The translations under genes and the position numbers were made by a program. 64,000 nt of DNA from the IMG/VR virus record IMGVR_UViG_3300024259_001623; one strand, given 5' to 3'. A model generated the notes under the pieces. It worked only from the letters and a program-made list of their open reading frames with translations. It had not been told where the DNA came from and searched no databases. Shown in pieces: positions 3,664-27,916 of this stretch. Origin of the DNA: a virus (lineage: Duplodnaviria; Caudoviricetes). The stretch's first letter is position 1; every line of letters begins with the position of its first letter.

Positions 3664-3891
3664 TTACCATTTTGCTGGTTTATCGCCTCTATCAGGGTGA
3701 ACTCCATCGACAACAAACGAAATAACCAAAGCAAGAGGTCCAAGTAAAGACAAAGCAATGACCATTCTTCTATCGTTTGTTGTCCACAAACCAGTTTGAT
3801 AAGTAATTGCCTTTTTTATACGAGGATATGTTAAAACTGAACAAATCAACCAAATGAATATAATCATGAATATAATCAAAAATGTAGTCAT
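3664..3891 (-). CDS. small two-TM membrane protein (paralog 2 of 4)
   Basis: MTTFLII..W..., LLGP, ends AKW like paralog 1. Confidence 0.7.
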   Translation of the reverse strand: MTTFLIIFMIIFIWLICSVLTYPRIKKAITYQTGLWTTNDRRMVIALSLLGPLALVISFVVDGVHPDRGDKPAKW

Positions 3892-4091
3892 CTTATATCT
3901 CCGTTATGATCTCGAAAAAATACTACTTCTAGTATCAAACACCAAGGAGCGAAAAACAAGCAAATCAATGCTGTTTCTATGCTATAAGCCCCAGTCCAAA
4001 CTGGGTATATTTTCATCTCTCTATGCTTGACCATATAATATGATGAAACTGCTAAAATCAGCCATATACAAATAACAATAAACTGTATCAT
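3888..4091 (-). CDS. small two-TM membrane protein (paralog 3 of 4)
   Basis: same layout, ATGA overlap with neighbour. Confidence 0.65.
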   Translation of the reverse strand: MIQFIVICIWLILAVSSYYMVKHREMKIYPVWTGAYSIETALICLFFAPWCLILEVVFFRDHNGDIR

Positions 4092-6254: not shown

Positions 6255-6728
6255 TCATTTCTCAAACGATGCAAGATATTTTTTGTAATCTTCTATAGCT
6301 TGATCATAATCTTTTTTGGCAAGAAAAACTTTTGTAAAAGCAGCATCATAATTCTGACCAGCAGCTACAAAATCTTTTAACTGTACTGTAACAGGTACAG
6401 CAACTTCAAAATCATGTTTGAATTCTTTAACTCTTTTGAGATTTGTTAAGACATGAATCCCAAGTTCAATATCCTGAAATGGATTAGAACTATATGGCCT
6501 ATACACCAAAGATTCTTGTTTAGTAAGTTTTGTGCCCTTCCTATTCGATTTATTCCAACCAGGAAAATATCTTGTTTTCATAAATGGAGTCTCAACAATA
6601 TATTTTTTACCTTTATGGTCGGGTATTGGTCTGACTATCAAAACTTTCCACATGGTAGCCTTTCCGCCGCGATCCTTTAAAGTACGCAAAACTCGTTTAG
6701 TTCTTTTGTCATCAGTTTTTAGGCACAT
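6255..6728 (-). CDS. MC[LC]-GIHV paralog family, copy 7
   Basis: family motifs. Confidence 0.8.
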   Translation of the reverse strand: MCLKTDDKRTKRVLRTLKDRGGKATMWKVLIVRPIPDHKGKKYIVETPFMKTRYFPGWNKSNRKGTKLTKQESLVYRPYSSNPFQDIELGIHVLTNLKRVKEFKHDFEVAVPVTVQLKDFVAAGQNYDAAFTKVFLAKKDYDQAIEDYKKYLASFEK

Positions 6729-11811: not shown

Positions 11812-12339
11812 TTATTTGAAAACCCCGAATTTCTCTAATGCTGCCAAAGCTAAATCGCATTCTTCTAATAGAGCCAACTTATGTGGAGTATAGCCACTAT
11901 TATCTTTCATCTTAGGATCAGCATTTTCTTTTAACAACTGTAGAATCTTATCTGCATCATCTGATAAGACGGCCAAATGCAATTTCGTTCTACCGTAATC
12001 CCCCTTTTCGTCAATAGACGAAATAGTTTCCATTTCATCATCAGAAAATACTTCTCTACTTTCGTAATATCTTTGCCAACGTAGGATTCTATCTTCCACA
12101 GATTCTTCTGGTGCAATCTTCATCTGATCCATAACCTCAAGGTTCTTATCTCCTTGAGTATCGTGGAACGTATCAAATTCCCATTCATCTTCTTCATGTT
12201 TAAAGAAAGGGTCTAAAAAATGACTCTCACCATACTTCTTCTTTAAAATGTTTAAGATACGATCCCTATGGTAAACAGAATAGTTTCTACGTTTCAGTCC
12301 TCTTGATACGCAGGACAAAAACTTATGAGTTGCGTTCAT
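11812..12339 (-). CDS. ankyrin-repeat protein
   Basis: GRTKLHLAV...LLKENADP...DNSGYTPHKLA. Confidence 0.8.
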   Translation of the reverse strand: MNATHKFLSCVSRGLKRRNYSVYHRDRILNILKKKYGESHFLDPFFKHEEDEWEFDTFHDTQGDKNLEVMDQMKIAPEESVEDRILRWQRYYESREVFSDDEMETISSIDEKGDYGRTKLHLAVLSDDADKILQLLKENADPKMKDNSGYTPHKLALLEECDLALAALEKFGVFK

Positions 12340-12425
12340 AATTTCTCCATATAAAAAATCTGCCGGAAGAGAATAGAATTATTCCAATTTACTATAATTC
12401 TAACTCTCCCGGCAGGGGCAACAGG

Positions 12426-14096
12426 CTATATTTTACCGAGAATAAAATCGCTAACCATTTGAGGCGTTGCAGTATCGAAACCTACAACGTTCAACGAGTT
12501 ACGATCTTCGTTGTCAGTGATGCTATAAGGATTAGCTAACATACCACAAGCAATCATCTTAGCATCGTTTCTTCTTTTCTTACTGTCCCGATACAACTTC
12601 AAAGACCGATCTACATGAGTCTCGCCAGCCCAAGTCTCCATATCAGAGAGAATAACAAAAGCATCAACATCTACATTCTTACTCTTTGCCCAATTGGTAG
12701 CGATAGCTGCATCGGTGCCACCAAAGTTGCTCATCTGGGCCTTCTTCATTGCAGTCTGAATCGAATCCTTGGCAGTAATCTTCAAGTCTACCAAATTATG
12801 AGCGAAGCCCATGATATGATAGTTAGGTTCGGTTCTGGCAAAGACCATAGCCATTGCAGCAGCAGCAACGCAAGGACTCATATTACGGATACCAGATACT
12901 TCACCGCCAGCCATAGAACCAGAAACATCAACCGCCAAAAGGATATTCTTACCAGTTGGCTCAACATTCTTGAAGGACAGATAAAAAGCATCGTCCAACG
13001 CATCAAGAATCTGAGGAACTGGCTCATAACCTAACGAAGTAGGATAACCCCAATACGAATGGGTAAACTGATTGCTATAGGCACACATCGCTGCTAATAC
13101 GCTCAAAGGATGAATTCTGGCCTTATGCAACACTTCCTCATTTCTCAAAGTCTCACAAACATACTTTGTAGACGAGGATAGCGGAGTCAAAACGCCTGCC
13201 TTTGTCATATTACGGATATTACGAATCATAGCAGTCATTGGCATACCATCCAGCAATGCCTTCCATACCTTCTTATCATAAAGAGTATTAGGTACGCTCT
13301 CACGAACCAAACCATACTTCTTAATCATAGAAACCATTTCCTTGCTATCATCTACAGTCTTAGCAGTCTCATGTGCCCAGATATATCTAGTGGCATCATT
13401 CTTCTCCAACTTCGCAAACTGGACCTTGGTGAATCCCTTTCTTCCCTTAACGATATACTTCAAAACGGTTTGCATATCCTTACTACCGGGGATCAAGTGG
13501 ATTTTACGCAGCAAATCTCTATGCGACCAAGACGCTTCGCCTTCTACCTTACGCTGAGGATACTTACAAGCCTGGAATGCTACGGAATTAGGAGTCTTAC
13601 TGGTATACCAACTACCAATAGCCTTACGCAAACCTCTACCCCATCCTCTCATTTGGTCTACATAAGTCACGAAACTGAACAAATATGTTCCGATACGACA
13701 GACCTTGTTTAAGTTATCCAAAGCGTACTTACGAATCTCGTCATTATCGCAAGAAGCTGCTAAAGCCATAACAAAGATAGCAGGATCATTCTTGGCTGCA
13801 CGACCTTCATTAGAAACTGCGATAGTTTCGTCAATAGCAGCCATTCCGCCTTCGGTAGTCTTAAACAGCTTAGTTACATTCTTGGCGTTTTCCTTAGCGA
13901 ACTTTTTCTTACCAACATAAAAAGTTCCGCCATCAGAACCAAGAATTAAGAACCTACGAAGATGCTCTAACCGATCAACAGAATAAACATACCCACCGGC
14001 GTTATTCTTGACTTGACGCTTGTTCGCTCTCTGAGTCTGAGGAACGTCTACGTTACGTGAAGCTAAACCACTATCCTTAACAATATTCTTAGCCAT
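12426..14096 (-). CDS. rsr: Ro60/TROVE-domain RNA-binding protein with C-terminal vWA domain
   Basis: NNAGGYVY, L.RFLILGSDGGTFY, KY.QR..WSHRDLLR..H, MP.TAMIRN, vWA MIDAS AVDVSGSM, GGTD, DAFVILSD.ET, VGFD. Confidence 0.95.
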   Translation of the reverse strand: MAKNIVKDSGLASRNVDVPQTQRANKRQVKNNAGGYVYSVDRLEHLRRFLILGSDGGTFYVGKKKFAKENAKNVTKLFKTTEGGMAAIDETIAVSNEGRAAKNDPAIFVMALAASCDNDEIRKYALDNLNKVCRIGTYLFSFVTYVDQMRGWGRGLRKAIGSWYTSKTPNSVAFQACKYPQRKVEGEASWSHRDLLRKIHLIPGSKDMQTVLKYIVKGRKGFTKVQFAKLEKNDATRYIWAHETAKTVDDSKEMVSMIKKYGLVRESVPNTLYDKKVWKALLDGMPMTAMIRNIRNMTKAGVLTPLSSSTKYVCETLRNEEVLHKARIHPLSVLAAMCAYSNQFTHSYWGYPTSLGYEPVPQILDALDDAFYLSFKNVEPTGKNILLAVDVSGSMAGGEVSGIRNMSPCVAAAAMAMVFARTEPNYHIMGFAHNLVDLKITAKDSIQTAMKKAQMSNFGGTDAAIATNWAKSKNVDVDAFVILSDMETWAGETHVDRSLKLYRDSKKRRNDAKMIACGMLANPYSITDNEDRNSLNVVGFDTATPQMVSDFILGKI

Positions 14097-14141
14097 TTTT
14101 CATCTCCCTTTTATAGTTATATCCCAAAATTTTTATAAATT

Positions 14142-14270
14142 ACTAGGTAAGTTAGTAGCATGGTTATATGCCCCCGTTCTATCATTAAACTATATCGCCG
14201 CTATTGCGACGACACCAGGAATCAAACCTGATTTTGGGGTTTATGGATAACCCAATGCCTTCGACCCAGT
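14142..14270 (-). ncRNA. Y RNA, YrlA-type with permuted tRNA module (unit 1)
   Basis: 5' ACUGGGUCGAA / 3' CUUACCUAGU stem with bulged C; T arm TCAGG-TTTGATT-CCTGG, loop-closed acceptor-like stem, D arm. Confidence 0.85.
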
Positions 14271-14290
14271 TATGTTCTTCTATATAAAAT

Positions 14291-14423
14291 ACTAGGTAAG
14301 TTATTAGTATGGTTGATATTACTGACGCTCTGCCGTTGAGCTATATACCGGCTTTGCCGATATAGCAGGATTCGAACCTACAACCTTCAGTTCCGGTTGA
14401 TAAACCAATACATTCGACCCAGT
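14291..14423 (-). ncRNA. Y RNA, YrlA-type (unit 2)
   Basis: same terminal stem; GTAGG-TTCGAAT-CCTGC, TATATCGGC-AAA-GCCGGTATA, GCTC-AACGGCA-GAGC. Confidence 0.9.
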
Positions 14424-14461
14424 TATTTTCTTCTTTTTTATCCCTTATATTTTTATAAAAT

Positions 14462-14589
14462 ACTAGGTAAGTTGTTGGAATGGTATAATGCTCTGCCAAT
14501 TGAGCTATGTCGCTACATTGTAACGACAATGGGAATCGAACCCATAACCTTCTCATTAAAAGTGATAAACCATATCCATTCGACCCAGT
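14462..14589 (-). ncRNA. Y RNA, YrlA-type (unit 3)
   Basis: same terminal stem; ATGGG-TTCGATT-CCCAT, TGTCGTTAC-AAT-GTAGCGACA, GCTC-AATTGGCA-GAGC. Confidence 0.9.
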
Positions 14590-14713
14590 TATTTTCTTTT
14601 AAAGCAAAAAATAAGTTGCCTAACAAATTAATATTAAGCAACTTATCCTTTTTTAAGCACCCGACGCCCTCTTACACCAATACATTTCCGAACGAGTCGT
14701 CACAGTTTATAAA

Positions 14714-14782
14714 AAAAGGCAAGTTAGTGTCAATAGCGTAGTGATCATTAAAAGTGATAAGCTATCGAAATTCGGCCCTTTA
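14714..14782 (-). ncRNA. minimal Y-like RNA (unit 4)
   Basis: AAGGGCCGAA / CUUGCCUUU stem with bulged C, TTATC motif, no tRNA module. Confidence 0.7.
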
Positions 14783-14798
14783 TTTTTCTATTTTATAT

Positions 14799-14879
14799 AA
14801 AAGGATAAGTTTACGTTAATAGTTTTATTGGTTTTGATCTCTTAAATCATAATTGATAAACTATCAACTTCGACCCTTT
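14799..14879 (-). ncRNA. minimal Y-like RNA (unit 5)
   Basis: AAAGGGUCGAA / CUUAUCCUUU, GATAGTTT/AAACTATT upper stem, TTATC. Confidence 0.7.
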
Positions 14880-14975
14880 ACTTTCTAAGTTAATACCTAT
14901 TTTTTTATTTATAGGTCTTTTGACGTTAGGTATCAAACGCCCGGTAGCGAACCGGCTGACCTCCATTCTAAAACA

Positions 14976-15042
14976 AAAAGGCAAGTTATTATTAATAGTT
15001 ATTTTTATCCCTTTGATGATAAACTATTAAATTCGGCCCTTT
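14976..15042 (-). ncRNA. minimal Y-like RNA (unit 6)
   Basis: AAGGGCCGAA / CUUGCCUUU, TTAATAGTT/AACTATTAA, TTATC. Confidence 0.7.
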
Positions 15043-15110
15043 AAAAAATCTCGGTTCCTACACCGTCATATAGACGGGAGAAGAAAATTCGAGATCATTT
15101 CTTCAAAAGA

Positions 15111-15280
15111 TAATATGAGGCGGCTCTAGGAAAAATTAAAAAACCTGAAACCTATTATCCAAACCTTACATCGGCTCCTGTCAACTGTTCTCTCCTGGTA
15201 AGGAGCCTACGATACAAACCAAACCGACTCAACTTTGCAATAAAACAAACTTTATGAAAAGAAAGAGCCGCCTCATATTA
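15111..15280 (-). ncRNA. candidate 170-nt rod-shaped RNA with large central bubble
   Basis: 17-bp perfect inverted repeat TAATATGAGGCGGCTCT at the ends; internal GGCTCCT/AGGAGCC hairpin. Confidence 0.5.
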
Positions 15281-15282
15281 AA

Positions 15283-15379
15283 CGAAGACCGCTGGATTCG
15301 AACCAACAACCTCAAGGGCTAATCCTTAGTCCCAACAACCTTTTTTGCCCTTGCGCTCTGCCAATTGAGCTACATCTTC
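15283..15379 (-). ncRNA. tRNA-like RNA with expanded anticodon loop
   Basis: acceptor GAAGATG/GGTCTTC, D GCTC/GAGC, T GTTGG-TTCGAAT-CCAGC; stem CAAGGGC/GCCCTTG closes a 27-nt loop. Confidence 0.75.
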
Positions 15380-15385
15380 TTATAA

Positions 15386-15452
15386 ATCGGATTAGGTTTG
15401 TCCGTAGGGGGCTTTCATTCTCTATATGATAACCTACAAACTTCGACCCGAT
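15386..15452 (-). ncRNA. minimal Y-like RNA (unit 7)
   Basis: AUCGGGUCGAA / AAUCCGAU terminal stem, GTAGG/CCTAC upper stem, TTATC. Confidence 0.65.
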
Positions 15453-15457
15453 GTTAT

Positions 15458-15486
15458 ATTATAGTATCGCGTTATCAGAAACGCAA
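15458..15486 (-). promoter_or_regulatory. sigma70-type promoter heading the Y RNA array-Ro60 unit
   Basis: TTGCGT-N17-TATAAT, about 5 nt before unit 7. Confidence 0.7.
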
Positions 15487-16204: not shown

Positions 16205-16651
16205 TTATTTAAACTCTTTGGGAATATATTCTAATTTTAGCATTATTGCAACTGTATAACCACCCAAATGTCTCCATACAACATCTAGATAATCTTTAAA
16301 AGTTGGATAAAGATTTTCTTTTGGTGCTATTTTCTTATCTGTGCCTTCATCCGATATCTTCCCCCCGAATTGCAGAGCTACTTCATTAATGATAGAATGA
16401 TCTACCCACCAAATAAAATTCCCGCCGCCACCATGTCTCATTTCAAAATGTTTTTCGCCTTCTAGCCAGCAAATTCTACTCTCATTAATTTGTGGACATT
16501 TAATAGTCCAGACATGATCTGCAAAACCATCTTCTGAGTATTCTACCGTGAGAGTATTTTTAAACTTATCTTTAATAAGCCTATTAATTAGTTCAGTAAT
16601 TTGTTCTGGATCAATTTTCTTACGAGTTTTCACCCAAGCATGATTAGCCAT
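16205..16651 (-). CDS. hypothetical protein
   Basis: 148 aa, coupled to the ligase C-fragment. Confidence 0.65.
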   Translation of the reverse strand: MANHAWVKTRKKIDPEQITELINRLIKDKFKNTLTVEYSEDGFADHVWTIKCPQINESRICWLEGEKHFEMRHGGGGNFIWWVDHSIINEVALQFGGKISDEGTDKKIAPKENLYPTFKDYLDVVWRHLGGYTVAIMLKLEYIPKEFK

Positions 16652-17262
16652 TATTCTTCTATCCCATTTTTTATAATCTTTTCATATCGCCAATGACAAC
16701 TTGTTTGTACATGATTGGCTCTTACATATTTTGCTAATGATCTCTGGAAGTCTCCATACGAAAAACTATCAACCAGTCTAACAACATATCCTTCACATTC
16801 ATCATTGTTATGTTCTTTTTCAAATAACTCTTTTATCTTGTCAACGTCCCAGATGCCTCTATACAGTTCAGGGACAACTGATACCCCTAAAACATCTGCC
16901 CATTCTACCATATCATCCCAACTCAAACATTCATTCTTATCATTCCATATACTAAACAGATAAAAATACGATTTTAGATTTTTATAGTGAATAGAATGTT
17001 TGGCAAATAGGTTCTCTCCACAGAATCTCCAACCATCTGGAATCTCATAAGATATTTTAGAATGAAGATTCTTTACCCAACCTCTGGATGGATGAGAAGC
17101 TCCGAAAATAGATCGAGCGTGTAAATAGTCTTTATACATAGAACAATTATGTACTAATATTCCATTGGCAAAAAAATTATTATTACCACTGACGGATATA
17201 TCATATAATTTTGATTTATTAGATATTTTCTTTATTTTTTTGATTTTTACTTTTTTCAACAT
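16651..17262 (-). CDS. split-intein C-part (39 aa) fused to C-terminal half of an RNA ligase
   Basis: LYDISV.GNNNFFANGILVHN/C splice junction, then ligase motifs CGENL, FYLFSIW, VVP.LY.G, EGYVVR, KYVR. Confidence 0.9.
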   Translation of the reverse strand: MLKKVKIKKIKKISNKSKLYDISVSGNNNFFANGILVHNCSMYKDYLHARSIFGASHPSRGWVKNLHSKISYEIPDGWRFCGENLFAKHSIHYKNLKSYFYLFSIWNDKNECLSWDDMVEWADVLGVSVVPELYRGIWDVDKIKELFEKEHNNDECEGYVVRLVDSFSYGDFQRSLAKYVRANHVQTSCHWRYEKIIKNGIEE

Positions 17263-18271
17263 TTTTTAACCTATCTAATAATAATTCCATTAACTCACAA
17301 TCATCAATGGCTTTCATCTCTTTTTCCCATATATAAATAACAAAATAATTATATTTTTCTGCTATTGCATTTTTTAGAGAATCTTTTTTCCAAACCTCTC
17401 CTGCTTTTATGATACCATTAGGAAACTTTAAAATATCATCTTTTTTATAAATTTCAGGATTAGCGTGCCAATAGTCACCATTAATTTCTAAAATTATTCT
17501 TGTTTTATTTATTTTGAAATCGAAACTTTTTCTATTTATCCAAAATTGTCTAGTAAAACCGATATTAAGTTCTTCTAAAACATTAGAAATTCTTGTTTCA
17601 AGCTTACTAGAGAAATTATGAACAAAGTTTTTACATCTTTTCTGTATTATAATATTCTTTTGCTCATCTGATAAGTTTTTCCAATATTTTTTATATCCAT
17701 CGTGTAACTTATCCATCCTAATCTTTTTATCTTCTGGCGAAATTATTTGCCAGTGATCATTCATTTTTCCATATCTATTAGGAAGCGATTTTTTACCGTA
17801 ATTCTCTAACATATAGTCATGCAACCATGAATAATATTCTTCAGACTTCCATATATTATCTACTCCATAATTTTTCAAAAAAGTTTGTTTCTTTTTATCT
17901 TGTATATCTTTTGATTTAGAAACATTATCAACACCATATTTCTTTTCGCATGTATTCTTATATTTTTGTCTAGTCCTTATCGTAGACGTTGCCTCTCTTT
18001 TGGTCCTTTTATCAATGCCGAAATATTTTAATAAAAATTGACTTTGTACAAAATTAAGTCCATATTCTTGTAAAAAATCTGTTAAACTCCAAAACTCATT
18101 AATGTATTTATTTTTAAAATCTTCTTTATCAAATATATTTTTCTTATCAAAACATATTTGTTTAAATCTTAATTCCTGTTTATCTAAATTGATATTGTTT
18201 TTTTTAGCACAAAAATAAATATGACGAGAATTTCTTTTGTTAATTTGTTCTTTACATATAAAGCATTCCAT
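17219..18271 (-). mobile_element. free-standing Vsr/DUF559-like homing endonuclease inside the fractured ligase gene
   Basis: KYGVDN repeats, SKLE..I, FDF.I, ILEINGDYWH, VIYIWEKE; lies between the two split-intein halves. Confidence 0.8.
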
Positions 18272-18328
18272 AGAGTTATCTCCTTTTTATTACTATTCAA
18301 CAATAAAAATGGAGATTCCTCTATTTTA

Positions 18329-19147
18329 TTAGTCGTTTATAAGAAATTCATCATTTTCTGATAAATCTTTGACGCATCTATAACAATTTAAATTAGGCAA
18401 CCAAACTCTATGTTCTCCCGTTATTTTTATCATTCTGCCATCTTCTAACTCAATTTCATACCATTCTTTTTTACTATTCTCATTGATAGAGAATCCATCA
18501 ATTTTTTTGTATTCAATCTGACCAGTTTCAGCATCCATAGATAAAACTTTACAATCTATTTTTTGCTCACAAACGTCTTGTATGCTCTTTATTCCCAAAT
18601 CCGTATTTAACTCAGTTTCTTGGTCAAGACAGTTCTCACCGTCCATTTTAACGGTCACAACGACCTCTCTACCTTCAAAGTGTTCTGTAGACTTTAATTG
18701 TCGATCATCATTAGTTAATCCAGGACTCCAAGGCAAATGTAAAGTTCTAGGATACTTAATATATTTAGAAAATAAATATAATACTTTCCCTTGCTTTAAA
18801 ATCTTTTGTACTGAATGATCAAAGAATAATTCTCCTTTTAATCTTTCTCCGCTTGGCAACATAATATTTCCCCACTTATCATATTCATATTCGTCATATA
18901 AATGAGAAGGAATAATTACGTTTTCGATGCCAGCAGCCATTCTTAAATCTTCACAAGAAAGATGAGTTTGTTCAGCCGCAATATGATGATATCCGCACAA
19001 AGAGACACCGTTATCTAAATGATAACCGCCATCATCCCATAAACGTCTTTCTATGATATGATGAGCATCTTGCGCATCTTTTCCGCATATAACGCATTTG
19101 TGGTTATCTCTTTCAAAAACAGATTGTCTAAATTCATCTCTAGTCAT
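18329..19147 (-). CDS. HNH domain + RNA ligase N-half + split-intein N-part (100 aa)
   Basis: CxxC..DAHH..ERR..NGVSLC..HH; KYPRT.HLPWSPG; motif I KMDGEN followed by intein CLD..T, block B ITGEHRVW. Confidence 0.9.
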   Translation of the reverse strand: MTRDEFRQSVFERDNHKCVICGKDAQDAHHIIERRLWDDGGYHLDNGVSLCGYHHIAAEQTHLSCEDLRMAAGIENVIIPSHLYDEYEYDKWGNIMLPSGERLKGELFFDHSVQKILKQGKVLYLFSKYIKYPRTLHLPWSPGLTNDDRQLKSTEHFEGREVVVTVKMDGENCLDQETELNTDLGIKSIQDVCEQKIDCKVLSMDAETGQIEYKKIDGFSINENSKKEWYEIELEDGRMIKITGEHRVWLPNLNCYRCVKDLSENDEFLIND

Positions 19148-19571: not shown

Positions 19572-19994
19572 TTATCTCCCTGATCTCATGTTTCTATCAT
19601 CGCTACGAATATCATCTTCGGTTGATGGTTGTCCATCTGCTCCATAAGATATAATCAACGGTGCATTATTCTTGGAATATCTAAAATTATTTCCAAAAGA
19701 ATCTATGAAACGTTCATCTTCTATAGTTCCCTCATTGTCAGCAGTTCCCTGCATTAACGATGCTATTTCAGGAATAGTTAATACATCTTTTAAATATCTA
19801 GGATATTCTTGATGATATCTATGATAGGTTAGAACAGCCTTACTCAAAACTTTCAGTCTAGCACTTGTCTCATCTTCTTGCGCTCTTACTTGAACATAAC
19901 TTCCTACACTTACAATCAAAGAAATCAATATACCCATAATACTAATAACAACCAACATCTCTATAATAGTAAAGCCTTTTCGTTTCTTACTCAT
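19572..19994 (-). CDS. GspG/type IV pilin-like protein with prepilin cleavage motif
   Basis: KRKG/FTIIEMLVVISI, C-terminal DSFGN.FRY...SYGADG...DDI. Confidence 0.85.
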   Translation of the reverse strand: MSKKRKGFTIIEMLVVISIMGILISLIVSVGSYVQVRAQEDETSARLKVLSKAVLTYHRYHQEYPRYLKDVLTIPEIASLMQGTADNEGTIEDERFIDSFGNNFRYSKNNAPLIISYGADGQPSTEDDIRSDDRNMRSGR

Positions 19995-26948: not shown

Positions 26949-27109
26949 TGCAGAGAGTTGGACTCGAACCAACAAACCTAAGTAGAATAAAATCTAAGTT
27001 CATTCTTAACTTGCATACTAGACATCAATGTCCTTGTCATTGCACCCAGTTATGCTCTAGGTCATAGAACCATAAGCTCTAATTGCGTTACCAATTACGC
27101 TACCTCCGC
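26949..27109 (-). ncRNA. tRNA-like RNA with about 85-nt insertion, 5' end overlapping the sigma-factor stop
   Basis: GCGGAGG/TCTCTGC acceptor, GCGT/ACGC D stem, GTTGG-TTCGAGT-CCAAC. Confidence 0.65.
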
Positions 27110-27916
27110 TTTAAATCCTTCCGCATACCTCGCAATATCAGCATTAATTCCACTCCTATCAATACTAAACAATCTATGAACTTCGCGTAAAGCCGCTTTA
27201 TATCTGTAATGCGCTCCACTCTCTGTCAGTCCAAGTTCCTTGGCTATTTGAATTTTTCCCTCTCCAAAAACAGCCGATTTAATAAGAATATCCCTATGTT
27301 CATTACTAAGCTTACTAATCAACGAATATACCAAATCTTTATCTTCAAGAGCCTGATCTGGACTTCTGTGAGGATCAAGTATCGGTGTATCAAAGTCCGG
27401 CGTTATCGTTATAGATTGTTTTGTAAACCATTTAACAGCACTATCTATGCAAGATATATTTTTATCTGACAAATTAGCCTCTTCTTTAATACGTTTTGGA
27501 GACTCATCTTGCTTACCATGCAAGTCAAATTGGGCCTTTCTATATGCAGCCATGTTACGACGAACAGAACGAGGAATACCACTCCATTCAGATTGACAAT
27601 CAACTATCATACCACGAACCCTTCTATACGCATAAAGAACAAAAGAATCAATCCCTTTGTCTTGCTGCTCCGGGTCAAACTTTCGTAACGCTTTCACTAA
27701 ACCTATAGAAGCTTCCGCTATCAAATCATCAAGGTCTACCTGTATATTAAAATACTTTTTAGTAGTAGAAGATAATTTAATAATCCAAGCCCAATAATTT
27801 TTTACCAAAATATTTTCATCATGGCTATTATGATCGGCTTTATATCTCAGCCATACTTTTTCTAACTTATTTTTATCTAAGCTTTTAGCTATGTTTAATC
27901 TTTTTTCTTTCTGCAT
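27095..27916 (-). CDS. sigma70-family RNA polymerase sigma factor (FliA/WhiG-like group)
   Basis: region 2 DLDDLIAEASIGL.KAL.KFDP...YA..RVRG.I.D; region 4 IAKELGLTESG HTH. Confidence 0.85.
   Translation of the reverse strand: MQKEKRLNIAKSLDKNKLEKVWLRYKADHNSHDENILVKNYWAWIIKLSSTTKKYFNIQVDLDDLIAEASIGLVKALRKFDPEQQDKGIDSFVLYAYRRVRGMIVDCQSEWSGIPRSVRRNMAAYRKAQFDLHGKQDESPKRIKEEANLSDKNISCIDSAVKWFTKQSITITPDFDTPILDPHRSPDQALEDKDLVYSLISKLSNEHRDILIKSAVFGEGKIQIAKELGLTESGAHYRYKAALREVHRLFSIDRSGINADIARYAEGFKAEVA

Follow-up and report, generated by a model that had tools for sequence, protein, structure and literature searches.

A phage Ro60 gene preceded by seven Y RNA-type units

Ro60-Y RNA particles are conserved from bacteria to humans, and the role of the individual Y RNAs is poorly understood. 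Among phages, phiLo with its two RNAs is, to our knowledge, the only Ro60 system that has been studied biochemically. Here we analyze a stretch of 64,000 nucleotides (nt; hereafter, the window) from an uncultured marine virus (Duplodnaviria; Caudoviricetes) recorded in IMG/VR as IMGVR_UViG_3300024259_001623, in which positions 12,426 to 15,486 carry, on the minus strand, a Ro60 gene and, upstream of it, an array of small RNA units. A first-pass annotation, made from the letters of the sequence, had proposed that these units are seven Y RNAs (u1 to u7), some of them tRNA mimics and the others minimal. The units were scored with a covariance model, R1, which was trained on 18 short units only, from seven loci (the window and its relatives), and with the Rfam models for YrlA (RF02553) and for nematode sbRNA (RF01656), the worm Y RNA homologue. 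The Ro60 gene and the units are as follows.

12426-14096, minus strand: Ro60 gene (TROVE and vWA domains), 556 amino acids; Pfam and Protein Data Bank (PDB) matches
14142-14270, minus strand: unit 1, YrlA-type, 129 nt; R1 33.6 bits; folds
14291-14423, minus strand: unit 2, YrlA-type, 133 nt; R1 42.2 bits; YrlA 29.7 bits, E 0.0015; folds
14462-14589, minus strand: unit 3, YrlA-type, 128 nt; R1 40.8 bits; YrlA 29.4 bits, E 0.0017; consensus fold
14714-14781, minus strand: unit 4, short Y RNA, 68 nt; R1 63.3 bits; RF01656 21.2 bits; fold
14800-14879, minus strand: unit 5, short Y RNA, 80 nt; R1 63.8 bits; RF01656 23.9 bits, E 0.11
14976-15042, minus strand: unit 6, short Y RNA, 67 nt; R1 74.8 bits, E 6e-17; fold
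15385-15452, minus strand: unit 7, short Y RNA, 68 nt; R1 52.3 bits; fold -16.5 kcal/mol

The open reading frame (ORF) at 12426-14096 matched the Pfam families TROVE (E 1.4e-34) and vWA_Ro60 (E 6.4e-47). In phmmer searches of the PDB, its translation aligned end to end with X. laevis Ro60 (1YVP, E 4e-113), D. radiodurans Rsr (2NVO, E 1e-103) and 9NEN. The MIDAS-type DVSGS motif of the protein is invariant across 15 relatives. Judged by homology, the product is a bona fide, canonical Ro60. The gene has a Shine-Dalgarno site and follows unit 1, as the first-pass annotation had described, with its start 45 nt past the unit and no terminator in between.

The seven units span 14142-15452 and have in common a 5' GGG(U/C)CGAA, an invariant UUAUC and a 3' strand that pairs with the 5' end. 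Motif scan, folds and R1 agreed on these positions and bore out the array as it had been drawn. Nine GGG[TC]CGAA sites occur in the window, seven of which fall within 14267-15449, all on the minus strand, and the TTATC motif that had been noted inside each unit lies 10-13 nt inward of this sequence in all seven. Every unit folds into a 7-bp terminal stem, an internal loop with CGAA on its 5' side and (A)ACUU on its 3' side, and a second stem of 8-10 bp that ends at UUAUC. The handle common to the units consists of the 7-bp terminal helix, an unpaired pyrimidine, a G-U and an A-U pair, the CGAA/AACUU internal loop, the second helix and UUAUC; in the seven window units the unpaired base is always C, and some relatives have U there. 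The ends of the units thus pair as those of Y RNAs do, in a helix with an unpaired pyrimidine beside a (G)NCGA strand. The published GNCGAAN0-1G motif fits five of the seven (u1, u2, u3, u5 and u7) and does not fit u4 and u6 (GCCGAAUU); among the tRNA-like units, u1 has GUCGAAG and u2 and u3 have GUCGAAUG, in agreement with the 5' motif of YrlA. The 3' strand of unit 7, AAUCCGAU, is divergent and without AACUU.

Beyond the handle, the bodies differ. Units 4 to 7 are 67-80 nt long and were correctly described as having no tRNA module; each ends in a U-rich tract, and the apex of unit 4 is a 4-bp hairpin with the 7-nt loop CUUUUAA. Units 1 to 3 have flanks that are near-identical to one another and lie 45-493 nt upstream of Ro60 on the same strand, within the distance of up to about 4 kb used to recognize YrlA genes. 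Together, these features support an assignment of the seven units as predicted Y RNA-type genes of two classes, YrlA-like (u1-u3) and short hairpin, YrlB/Yrn2- or sbRNA-like (u4-u7).

The shared handle is under RNA-level selection

R1 scored the four short window units at 52-75 bits and also detected the tRNA-like u1-u3, on which it had not been trained, over the full length of the model (34-42 bits, E 2e-8 to 4e-6). Across the 64-kb window, nothing beyond the seven units was found at E<=1. Covariation in the handle was measured on an alignment of 31 units from seven phage loci made with R1; MAFFT misplaced some 3' strands of helix 2. In the handle helices, 86.6% of cells were paired versus 67.2% after shuffling, and 119 cells showed double changes versus 46.8 after shuffling, values that none of 500 shuffles reached. 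Sliding the 3' partner by 1-3 columns lowered pairing to 36-54%. Helix 1 was 92% paired over the 31 units, with five of its nine pairs compensatory. Pair 7:177, which precedes the unpaired pyrimidine, alternates between CG (21 units) and UA (7); of the pairs that follow it, 9:176 is G-U in 27 units, and the next, A-U, never varies. An unpaired C after U/C7 is consistent with this covariation. The bulged-C terminal helix at the heart of the first-pass annotation therefore stood in respect of the covariation at 7:177 and of a C that is unpaired in all seven units, but not in respect of u7, which lacks the G-U pair after the bulge. With all seven units found by a custom model and both handle helices covarying, we conclude that the Y RNA handle is under RNA-level selection.

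Units 1 to 3 carry a circularly permuted tRNA module

RNAalifold, run on a plain MAFFT alignment of nine units, recovered the handle, a 5-bp T arm, a loop-closed acceptor stem and a D arm, and 14 of the 23 pairs in this consensus fold of the tRNA module were compensatory. Partial alignments of the Rfam YrlA model to u2 and u3 (about 29.5 bits, E about 0.0015) covered the same T arm, acceptor stem and D arm; the model gave no match to u1. The circularly permuted tRNA module proposed for units 1 to 3 was thereby confirmed. In a reading of the sequence, each of the three has a 7-bp acceptor stem plus 2 bp, a closing loop of 3-4 nt, and then U8-A9 and the D arm; acceptor stems of 7 bp are reported to be cleavable by RNase P in M. 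smegmatis (PMC4201824). Unit 1 departs from the usual loops, with GA for GG in its D loop and UUU for UUC in its T loop, a possible compensation that would keep the G19-C56 elbow pair as A-U. Units 1 to 3 are mutual nearest relatives and yet only 71-74% identical; they are therefore old, maintained paralogues, not fresh copies.

Unit 3 runs from the handle through a weak anticodon-arm-like hairpin (loop CUUUUAA) and variable-loop spacing to the T arm, the loop-closed acceptor stem and the D arm. Because the hairpin, the spacing and the T arm follow one another in this way, ARAGORN and the Rfam tRNA model called a tRNA-Lys(UUU) at 14520-14593, which we rejected as an artefact of the layout. Unit 3 also has a 16-mer in common with unit 4, as had been observed, and 15 of its 16 bases are identical in a tRNA-like unit of a related locus (L007, at 4088). 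The 16-mer forms a small hairpin, with a stem of only 3-4 bp and a 7-nt loop, (C/A)UUUUAA, that resembles the anticodon loop of tRNA-Lys(UUU). Its conservation across phages is a lead that favors function over recent deletion, and the motif may be a conserved functional hairpin. Given the 15 of 16 bases found in L007, the proposed descent of unit 4 from a unit 3 that shed its tRNA module is undecidable. A further candidate, a UCA-N7-UGA mini-hairpin formed generally by UUAUC, was rejected, as a UCA-N(6-8)-UGA hairpin occurs in just 9 of 85 units.

Arrays of such units are common beside phage Ro60 genes

Metagenomic relatives of the window Ro60 (53-61% protein identity) provided six loci with DNA. 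Y units were present on the Ro60 strand in all six: L002 has six of them, L005 at least four, L007 and L009 five each, L011 two or three, and L010 a single one. In every array of three or more units, short and tRNA-like members occur together. The L002 array is followed only about 2.5 kb and four ORFs further downstream by its Ro60 gene. The repertoire of bodies is wider than tRNA-like and minimal, because L002 also has, at 1361-1535, a Y-handle RNA with a third kind of body, a 175-nt multi-hairpin insert, and L007 has, at 3704-3812, one with a T-arm-like hairpin and two further hairpins. Non-canonical tRNA-like genes were also seen among the Y arrays (L007 121-193, 362-435 and 810-915; L009 4166-4237; L011 1589-1661). 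In L011, ARAGORN called a tRNA-Pyl, whose CUA anticodon makes it a possible amber suppressor.

In a sample of 80 IMG/VR contigs encoding Ro60 relatives, out of 419 Ro60 loci reported, R1 at E<0.01 matched 78 units in 41 loci, with up to five per locus. All 78 lie on the Ro60 strand and within 5 kb, and TTATC is present in 56 of the 73 non-duplicate matches. Several of these loci have units downstream of Ro60 (matches beyond position 6600). Among cultured phages, Gordonia phage BearBQ has two R1 units directly upstream of its Ro gene, and Streptomyces phage SparkleGoddess has three amid tRNA genes upstream of its own. The rarity of multi-Y-RNA loci, as portrayed in the first-pass annotation, was thus overstated: units accompany 41 of 80 IMG/VR Ro60 genes, occur in twos and threes in cultured actinophages, and were found in all six related loci. 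With three YrlA-type and four short units, the window array is the largest among the loci examined, which is a difference of degree; Ro60-Y RNA systems of this kind are already known from phages and bacteria, and the locus is a large case of one, not a new type.

The window sequence itself is present in seawater metagenomes. Contigs from four seawater runs had an identical array sequence with a constant number of units and no informative joints; two apparent joints were short cross-matches between T arm and D arm with sides of 20-21 nt. A blastn search of the cultured phages in INPHARED gave no DNA match to the window.

The distribution and conservation of the units bear on whether they have a specific link to Ro60 at all. 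They could instead be decayed or rearranged tRNA genes together with repeated terminator-like hairpins, as might be suspected in a window whose 24 tRNA genes all lie on the minus strand and which also has several odd tRNA-like elements, where tRNA detectors fire on u3 and a U-rich tract closes each short unit. Decay of this kind would not be expected to conserve the single-stranded CGAA, AACUU and UUAUC while the helices covary. Moreover, all seven units lie within 1.3 kb of Ro60, whereas the tRNA genes are spread over 40 kb, and the R1 matches in the 80 other loci are co-oriented with Ro60 in 78 of 78 cases. We regard this origin as highly improbable.

A link to Ro60 could also be confined to the YrlA-type units, with the short UUAUC units acting independently, in replication (as proposed for nematode sbRNAs) or some other process, or as decoys for host RNA-binding proteins. 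This idea draws on the better match of the short units to the sbRNA family than to bacterial YrlA, and on C. elegans, where the Ro orthologue did not bring down most of the sbRNAs and their replication activity depends on UUAUC (PMC4726728). It is very unlikely to hold here: short and tRNA-like units share one handle and are detected by one model, short units are abundant beside Ro60 in 41 of the 80 viral loci, and a compact single hairpin, Yrl2, is bound through its CGAA by the Ro60 of phage phiLo (PMC12135203).

Promoter and structured elements within the array

Several further elements lie before, between and after the units.

15458-15486, minus strand: sigma-70-like promoter TTGCGT-N17-TATAAT; pattern match; -10 box ends 5 nt before unit 7
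15283-15379, minus strand: tRNA-like element, cloverleaf, 97 nt; Rfam tRNA model 43 bits, with a 31-nt insertion; cloverleaf is the minimum free energy (MFE) fold
15100-15284, minus strand: 185-nt structured segment with a perfect 17-bp long-range closing stem; MFE -55.1 kcal/mol, z -3.4
15043-15096, minus strand: conserved hairpin and U-run, ending directly at unit 6; fold z -3.5
14880-14975, minus strand: spacer with two small hairpins inside a stem, then an AU hairpin; z -1.0, not significant
14606-14651, minus strand: 20-bp hairpin between an A-run and a U-run, separating unit 4 and unit 3; fold
12353-12415, minus strand: intrinsic terminator 3' of Ro60; fold -31.5 kcal/mol, z -4.4, then UUUUUU

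The TTGCGT-N17-TATAAT type of pattern has three sites in the window, against 1.2 expected. Only three of the six positions of its -35 box before unit 7 match the consensus, so that a consensus promoter scan did not list it. A TTGnnn-N17-TATAAT/TATAGT sequence stands 5-8 nt before the first Y unit in L002, L005, L009, L010 and L011 as well, which makes six loci including the window, and this recurrence makes the predicted promoter before unit 7 credible.

The tRNA-like element at 15283-15379, which begins 5 nt after unit 7, combines an anticodon stem of 7 bp with a loop of 27 nt and is therefore predicted to be unable to decode; ARAGORN made no call for it. Elsewhere in the window, at 41563-41682 on the minus strand, a 120-nt match to the tRNA model with a large insertion was likewise without an ARAGORN call. 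The adjoining segment at 15100-15284 is non-coding, folds in a way that only 1 of 200 shuffles equalled, and had no match in Rfam; it is possibly another small RNA of the array. In the hairpin at 15043-15096, the inner part, CUUCUCCCGUC-loop-GACGGUGUAGGAAC, is identical in the related loci L007/L008 at 758-788 (element 743-797), while the outer stem is wholly different there and yet pairs, with a U-run after each; the Ro60 proteins of the window and of L007/L008 are about 57-59% identical. This hairpin has no second copy in the window and no exact match in IMG/VR; as a conserved element, it could serve to terminate transcription, to guide processing or to bind a protein. The fold of 14590-14713, which includes the hairpin at 14606-14651, has -32 kcal/mol and z -4.2, with none of 200 shuffles as good; by its predicted fold, the hairpin resembles an intrinsic terminator, one that may work in both directions. 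The array is therefore not homogeneous, as it also contains a tRNA-like element, a 185-nt piece and two terminator-like hairpins.

These elements qualify the earlier view that one promoter heads and feeds the whole array. The promoter is there, at 15458-15486, but a single transcript from it to Ro60 is doubtful, because a hairpin with a U-run stands before both u3 and u6. Promoter scans of the array recognized no comparable promoter before u3. In three relatives, Y units abut tRNA or tRNA-like genes with spacers of 1-10 nt, an arrangement that suggests that RNase P/Z may help define Y RNA ends.

The arrangement around unit 1 raises the question of whether u1-u3 might act mainly in cis, binding Ro60 within the 5' leader of its own mRNA and so autoregulating the translation or stability of that message. 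A distance of 45 nt from u1 to the Ro60 start without a terminator, the near-identical flanks of u1-u3 and the lack of a recognizable promoter before u3 would all suit such a leader. In L002, however, the array is separated from Ro60 by about 2.5 kb and four ORFs, and in several IMG/VR loci units lie downstream of the gene. In M. smegmatis, YrlA and YrlB are processed from one precursor and transcribed together with the rsr locus, and yet accumulate as separate Ro-bound RNAs (PMC4201824). A mainly cis-acting role is in our view distinctly unlikely.

Neighboring genes

An RNA ligase gene (PF09414) 2.5 kb upstream (16651-19147, minus strand) is apparently interrupted by an intein and an endonuclease ORF. 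ORF 18329-19147 ends in an N-terminal intein splicing block, ORF 16651-17262 starts with a C-terminal intein block that is followed by the ligase domain, and ORF 17219-18271 has DUF7487/DUF559 endonuclease-like domains. As these ORFs either overlap or stand apart, the arrangement is a split or a frameshifted one. The phage also encodes a type II secretion pseudopilin/type IV pilin-like protein (N_methyl and T2SSG) at 19572-19994 on the minus strand. A phage-encoded sigma-70 family factor with regions 2 and 4 lies at 27095-27916 on the minus strand, and a similar gene is found near Ro60 in L009; this factor may be relevant to the choice of promoters that drive the RNA arrays.

Directly after the window Ro60 gene, a 175-amino-acid ORF (11812-12339, minus strand) gave sub-threshold matches to ankyrin repeats (E about 0.007). 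An ankyrin-repeat protein is encoded downstream of Ro60 in L005 and L007, with AbiTii also in L005, and a DUF4379 protein in L005, L006, L007 and L009, so that synteny is partly conserved.

A probable phage Ro60-Y RNA locus with an expanded array

We consider it likely that the window holds a phage Ro60-Y RNA locus whose array of Y RNA genes has been expanded and whose units are partner RNAs of Ro60. The sequence features of the units, the RNA-level selection on their handle and their linkage to Ro60 are direct observations of this study. From these, we infer a scheme for the expression, processing, Ro60 binding and partners of the units. Transcription would start at the promoter before unit 7 and, given the terminator-like hairpins inside the array, probably at one or more additional sites upstream of unit 3 as well; units 1 to 3 probably share a transcript with Ro60. 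The units would be released by several RNases, among them host RNase P/Z cutting at the embedded tRNA-like element. If D. radiodurans, Salmonella and phiLo are a guide, each RNA would then dock with its handle on the outside of the phage Ro60 ring, and its variable body would gate the ring or tether another factor. PNPase is the tethered factor in the Deinococcus, Salmonella and phiLo Ro60 systems, and host PNPase is a candidate here, as are, for u1-u3, proteins that recognize tRNA. The outcome would be a reshaping of RNA decay or repair during infection. A role in RNA maintenance fits the context of many tRNA genes and an RNA ligase. The first-pass annotation had each RNA tethering a different partner, or the minimal units serving as gates or decoys, roles that are plausible but hypothetical; the seven RNAs could mean seven partners, dosage or temporal classes.

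Several observations weigh against this interpretation. Among the larger ORFs of the window, neither PNPase nor RtcB nor any other known Y RNA partner was identified, and searches of sequencing runs with the window sequence matched seawater DNA metagenomes only, with no RNA run among the matches. None of the units reached an Rfam gathering score (YrlA 29-30 versus 69 bits; RF01656 21-25 versus 38 bits), so that comparison with the Rfam YrlA and Y RNA models gave partial YrlA matches to u2 and u3, all of them below threshold. The two terminator-like hairpins at 14606-14651 and 15043-15096 speak against one simple operon, and unit 7 has a mismatch at the G-U pair after the bulge as well as a missing AACUU. 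Finally, the 31-unit alignment was fitted to the structure of the model, which somewhat inflates its pairing; the slide control and the hits on untrained units argue for a real handle signal all the same.

Within 3 kb, the locus offers one Ro60 and seven natural Y RNA variants that combine a common handle with different bodies, and hence a compact set in which the influence of a Y RNA body on partner choice or gating could be studied. Phage Ro60 genes are often accompanied by such arrays, which current Rfam thresholds miss; R1 is a working model for this widespread phage Y RNA family, and a dedicated covariance model would annotate many phage and metagenomic RNAs.

Comparison with known Y RNA systems

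In 254 bacteria and 22 phages, YrlA-type RNAs have been reported no more than 4 kb from Ro60, some loci having several of them, and each species examined had a second, hairpin-type Y RNA (PMC4201824). Like the window units, bacterial and mycobacteriophage YrlA RNAs (RF02553; PMC4201824; 10.1101/312249) are encoded next to Ro60 in the same orientation, carry a 5' GNCGAA motif and pair their ends into a stem, the Ro-binding one in YrlA; like u1-u3, they have a permuted tRNA body of T arm, loop-closed acceptor stem and D arm, and can occur in multiple copies within 4 kb. The window handle differs from the YrlA consensus in its invariant UUAUC and its AACUU(A/G)CC 3' strand; the Rfam YrlA consensus contains CGAAUG and no UUAUC. 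Also unlike YrlA, the window has three diverged paralogues (71-74% identical), and u3 adds an anticodon-arm-like hairpin. With YrlA scores of 29.7 bits (u2), 29.4 bits (u3) and, for the best relative, 34.1 bits against a gathering score of 69, u1-u3 are YrlA-like in predicted architecture and are not members by the Rfam threshold.

The short units resemble S. Typhimurium and M. smegmatis YrlB, D. radiodurans Yrn2 and phiLo Yrl1/Yrl2, which have the same order of stem, internal loop and stem with CGAA and are likewise encoded upstream of Ro60 alongside a larger Y RNA. The Ro60 of Thermus phage phiLo binds its two upstream Yrl RNAs via CGAA and forms complexes with host PNPase (PMC12135203), and TROVE proteins of jumbo phages have been discussed as platforms for RNA repair (PMC7824862). 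In contrast to these systems, the window has four predicted short units, not one or two, with a conserved UUAUC and a defined second helix.

The units also resemble metazoan Y RNAs and nematode sbRNAs (RF01656; PMC4726728). Both have a lower stem with a single unpaired C, an upper stem directly followed by UUAUC where the loop starts, and a U-rich 3' tail; their 5' strands are GGUCCGA-like and their 3' strands CUUGAC/CUUG(A/C)C-like. The metazoan RNAs differ in having three pairs after the bulge where the units have two (G-U and A-U), and transcription of the units would be bacterial or phage-driven, not by Pol III. RF01656 aligned at full length, below threshold, to u4, u5 and u7 (21-25 bits, E 0.06-0.5; 24.8 bits and E 0.063 for u7), and at full length to two relatives (31.7 and 24.6 bits; gathering score 38). 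The sbRNA-type architecture with UUAUC is seen in all seven window units, and in its motifs the window handle appears to resemble metazoan sbRNA/Y RNA more than it does the Rfam YrlA handle.

Bacterial Y RNAs have been stated to be non-homologous to the vertebrate clades (PMC4726728), a question that the phage UUAUC RNAs make worth reopening. A far-reaching reading is that the UUAUC-type handle marks out a large family of phage Y RNAs that has no Rfam model and shares direct homology with metazoan Y/sbRNAs, and which is here expanded into seven non-redundant adaptors, one subtype of which (u3, u4 and the L007 unit at 4088) presents a tRNA-Lys(UUU)-like loop, (C/A)UUUUAA. We hold this reading to be unlikely, and convergence on the same Ro60 surface explains the likeness between phage and animal handles equally as well as shared ancestry does. 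Were it true, the tRNA mimic of u3 with its anticodon-like loop could serve as a bait or decoy for host defence nucleases that target tRNA or, alternatively, such a loop could guide Ro60-linked repair or decay to cleaved tRNAs, either of which would fit the neighboring intein-bearing RNA ligase and the large set of phage tRNAs. A dedicated covariance model would help settle whether the Y RNAs of bacteria, phages and animals share an ancestry.

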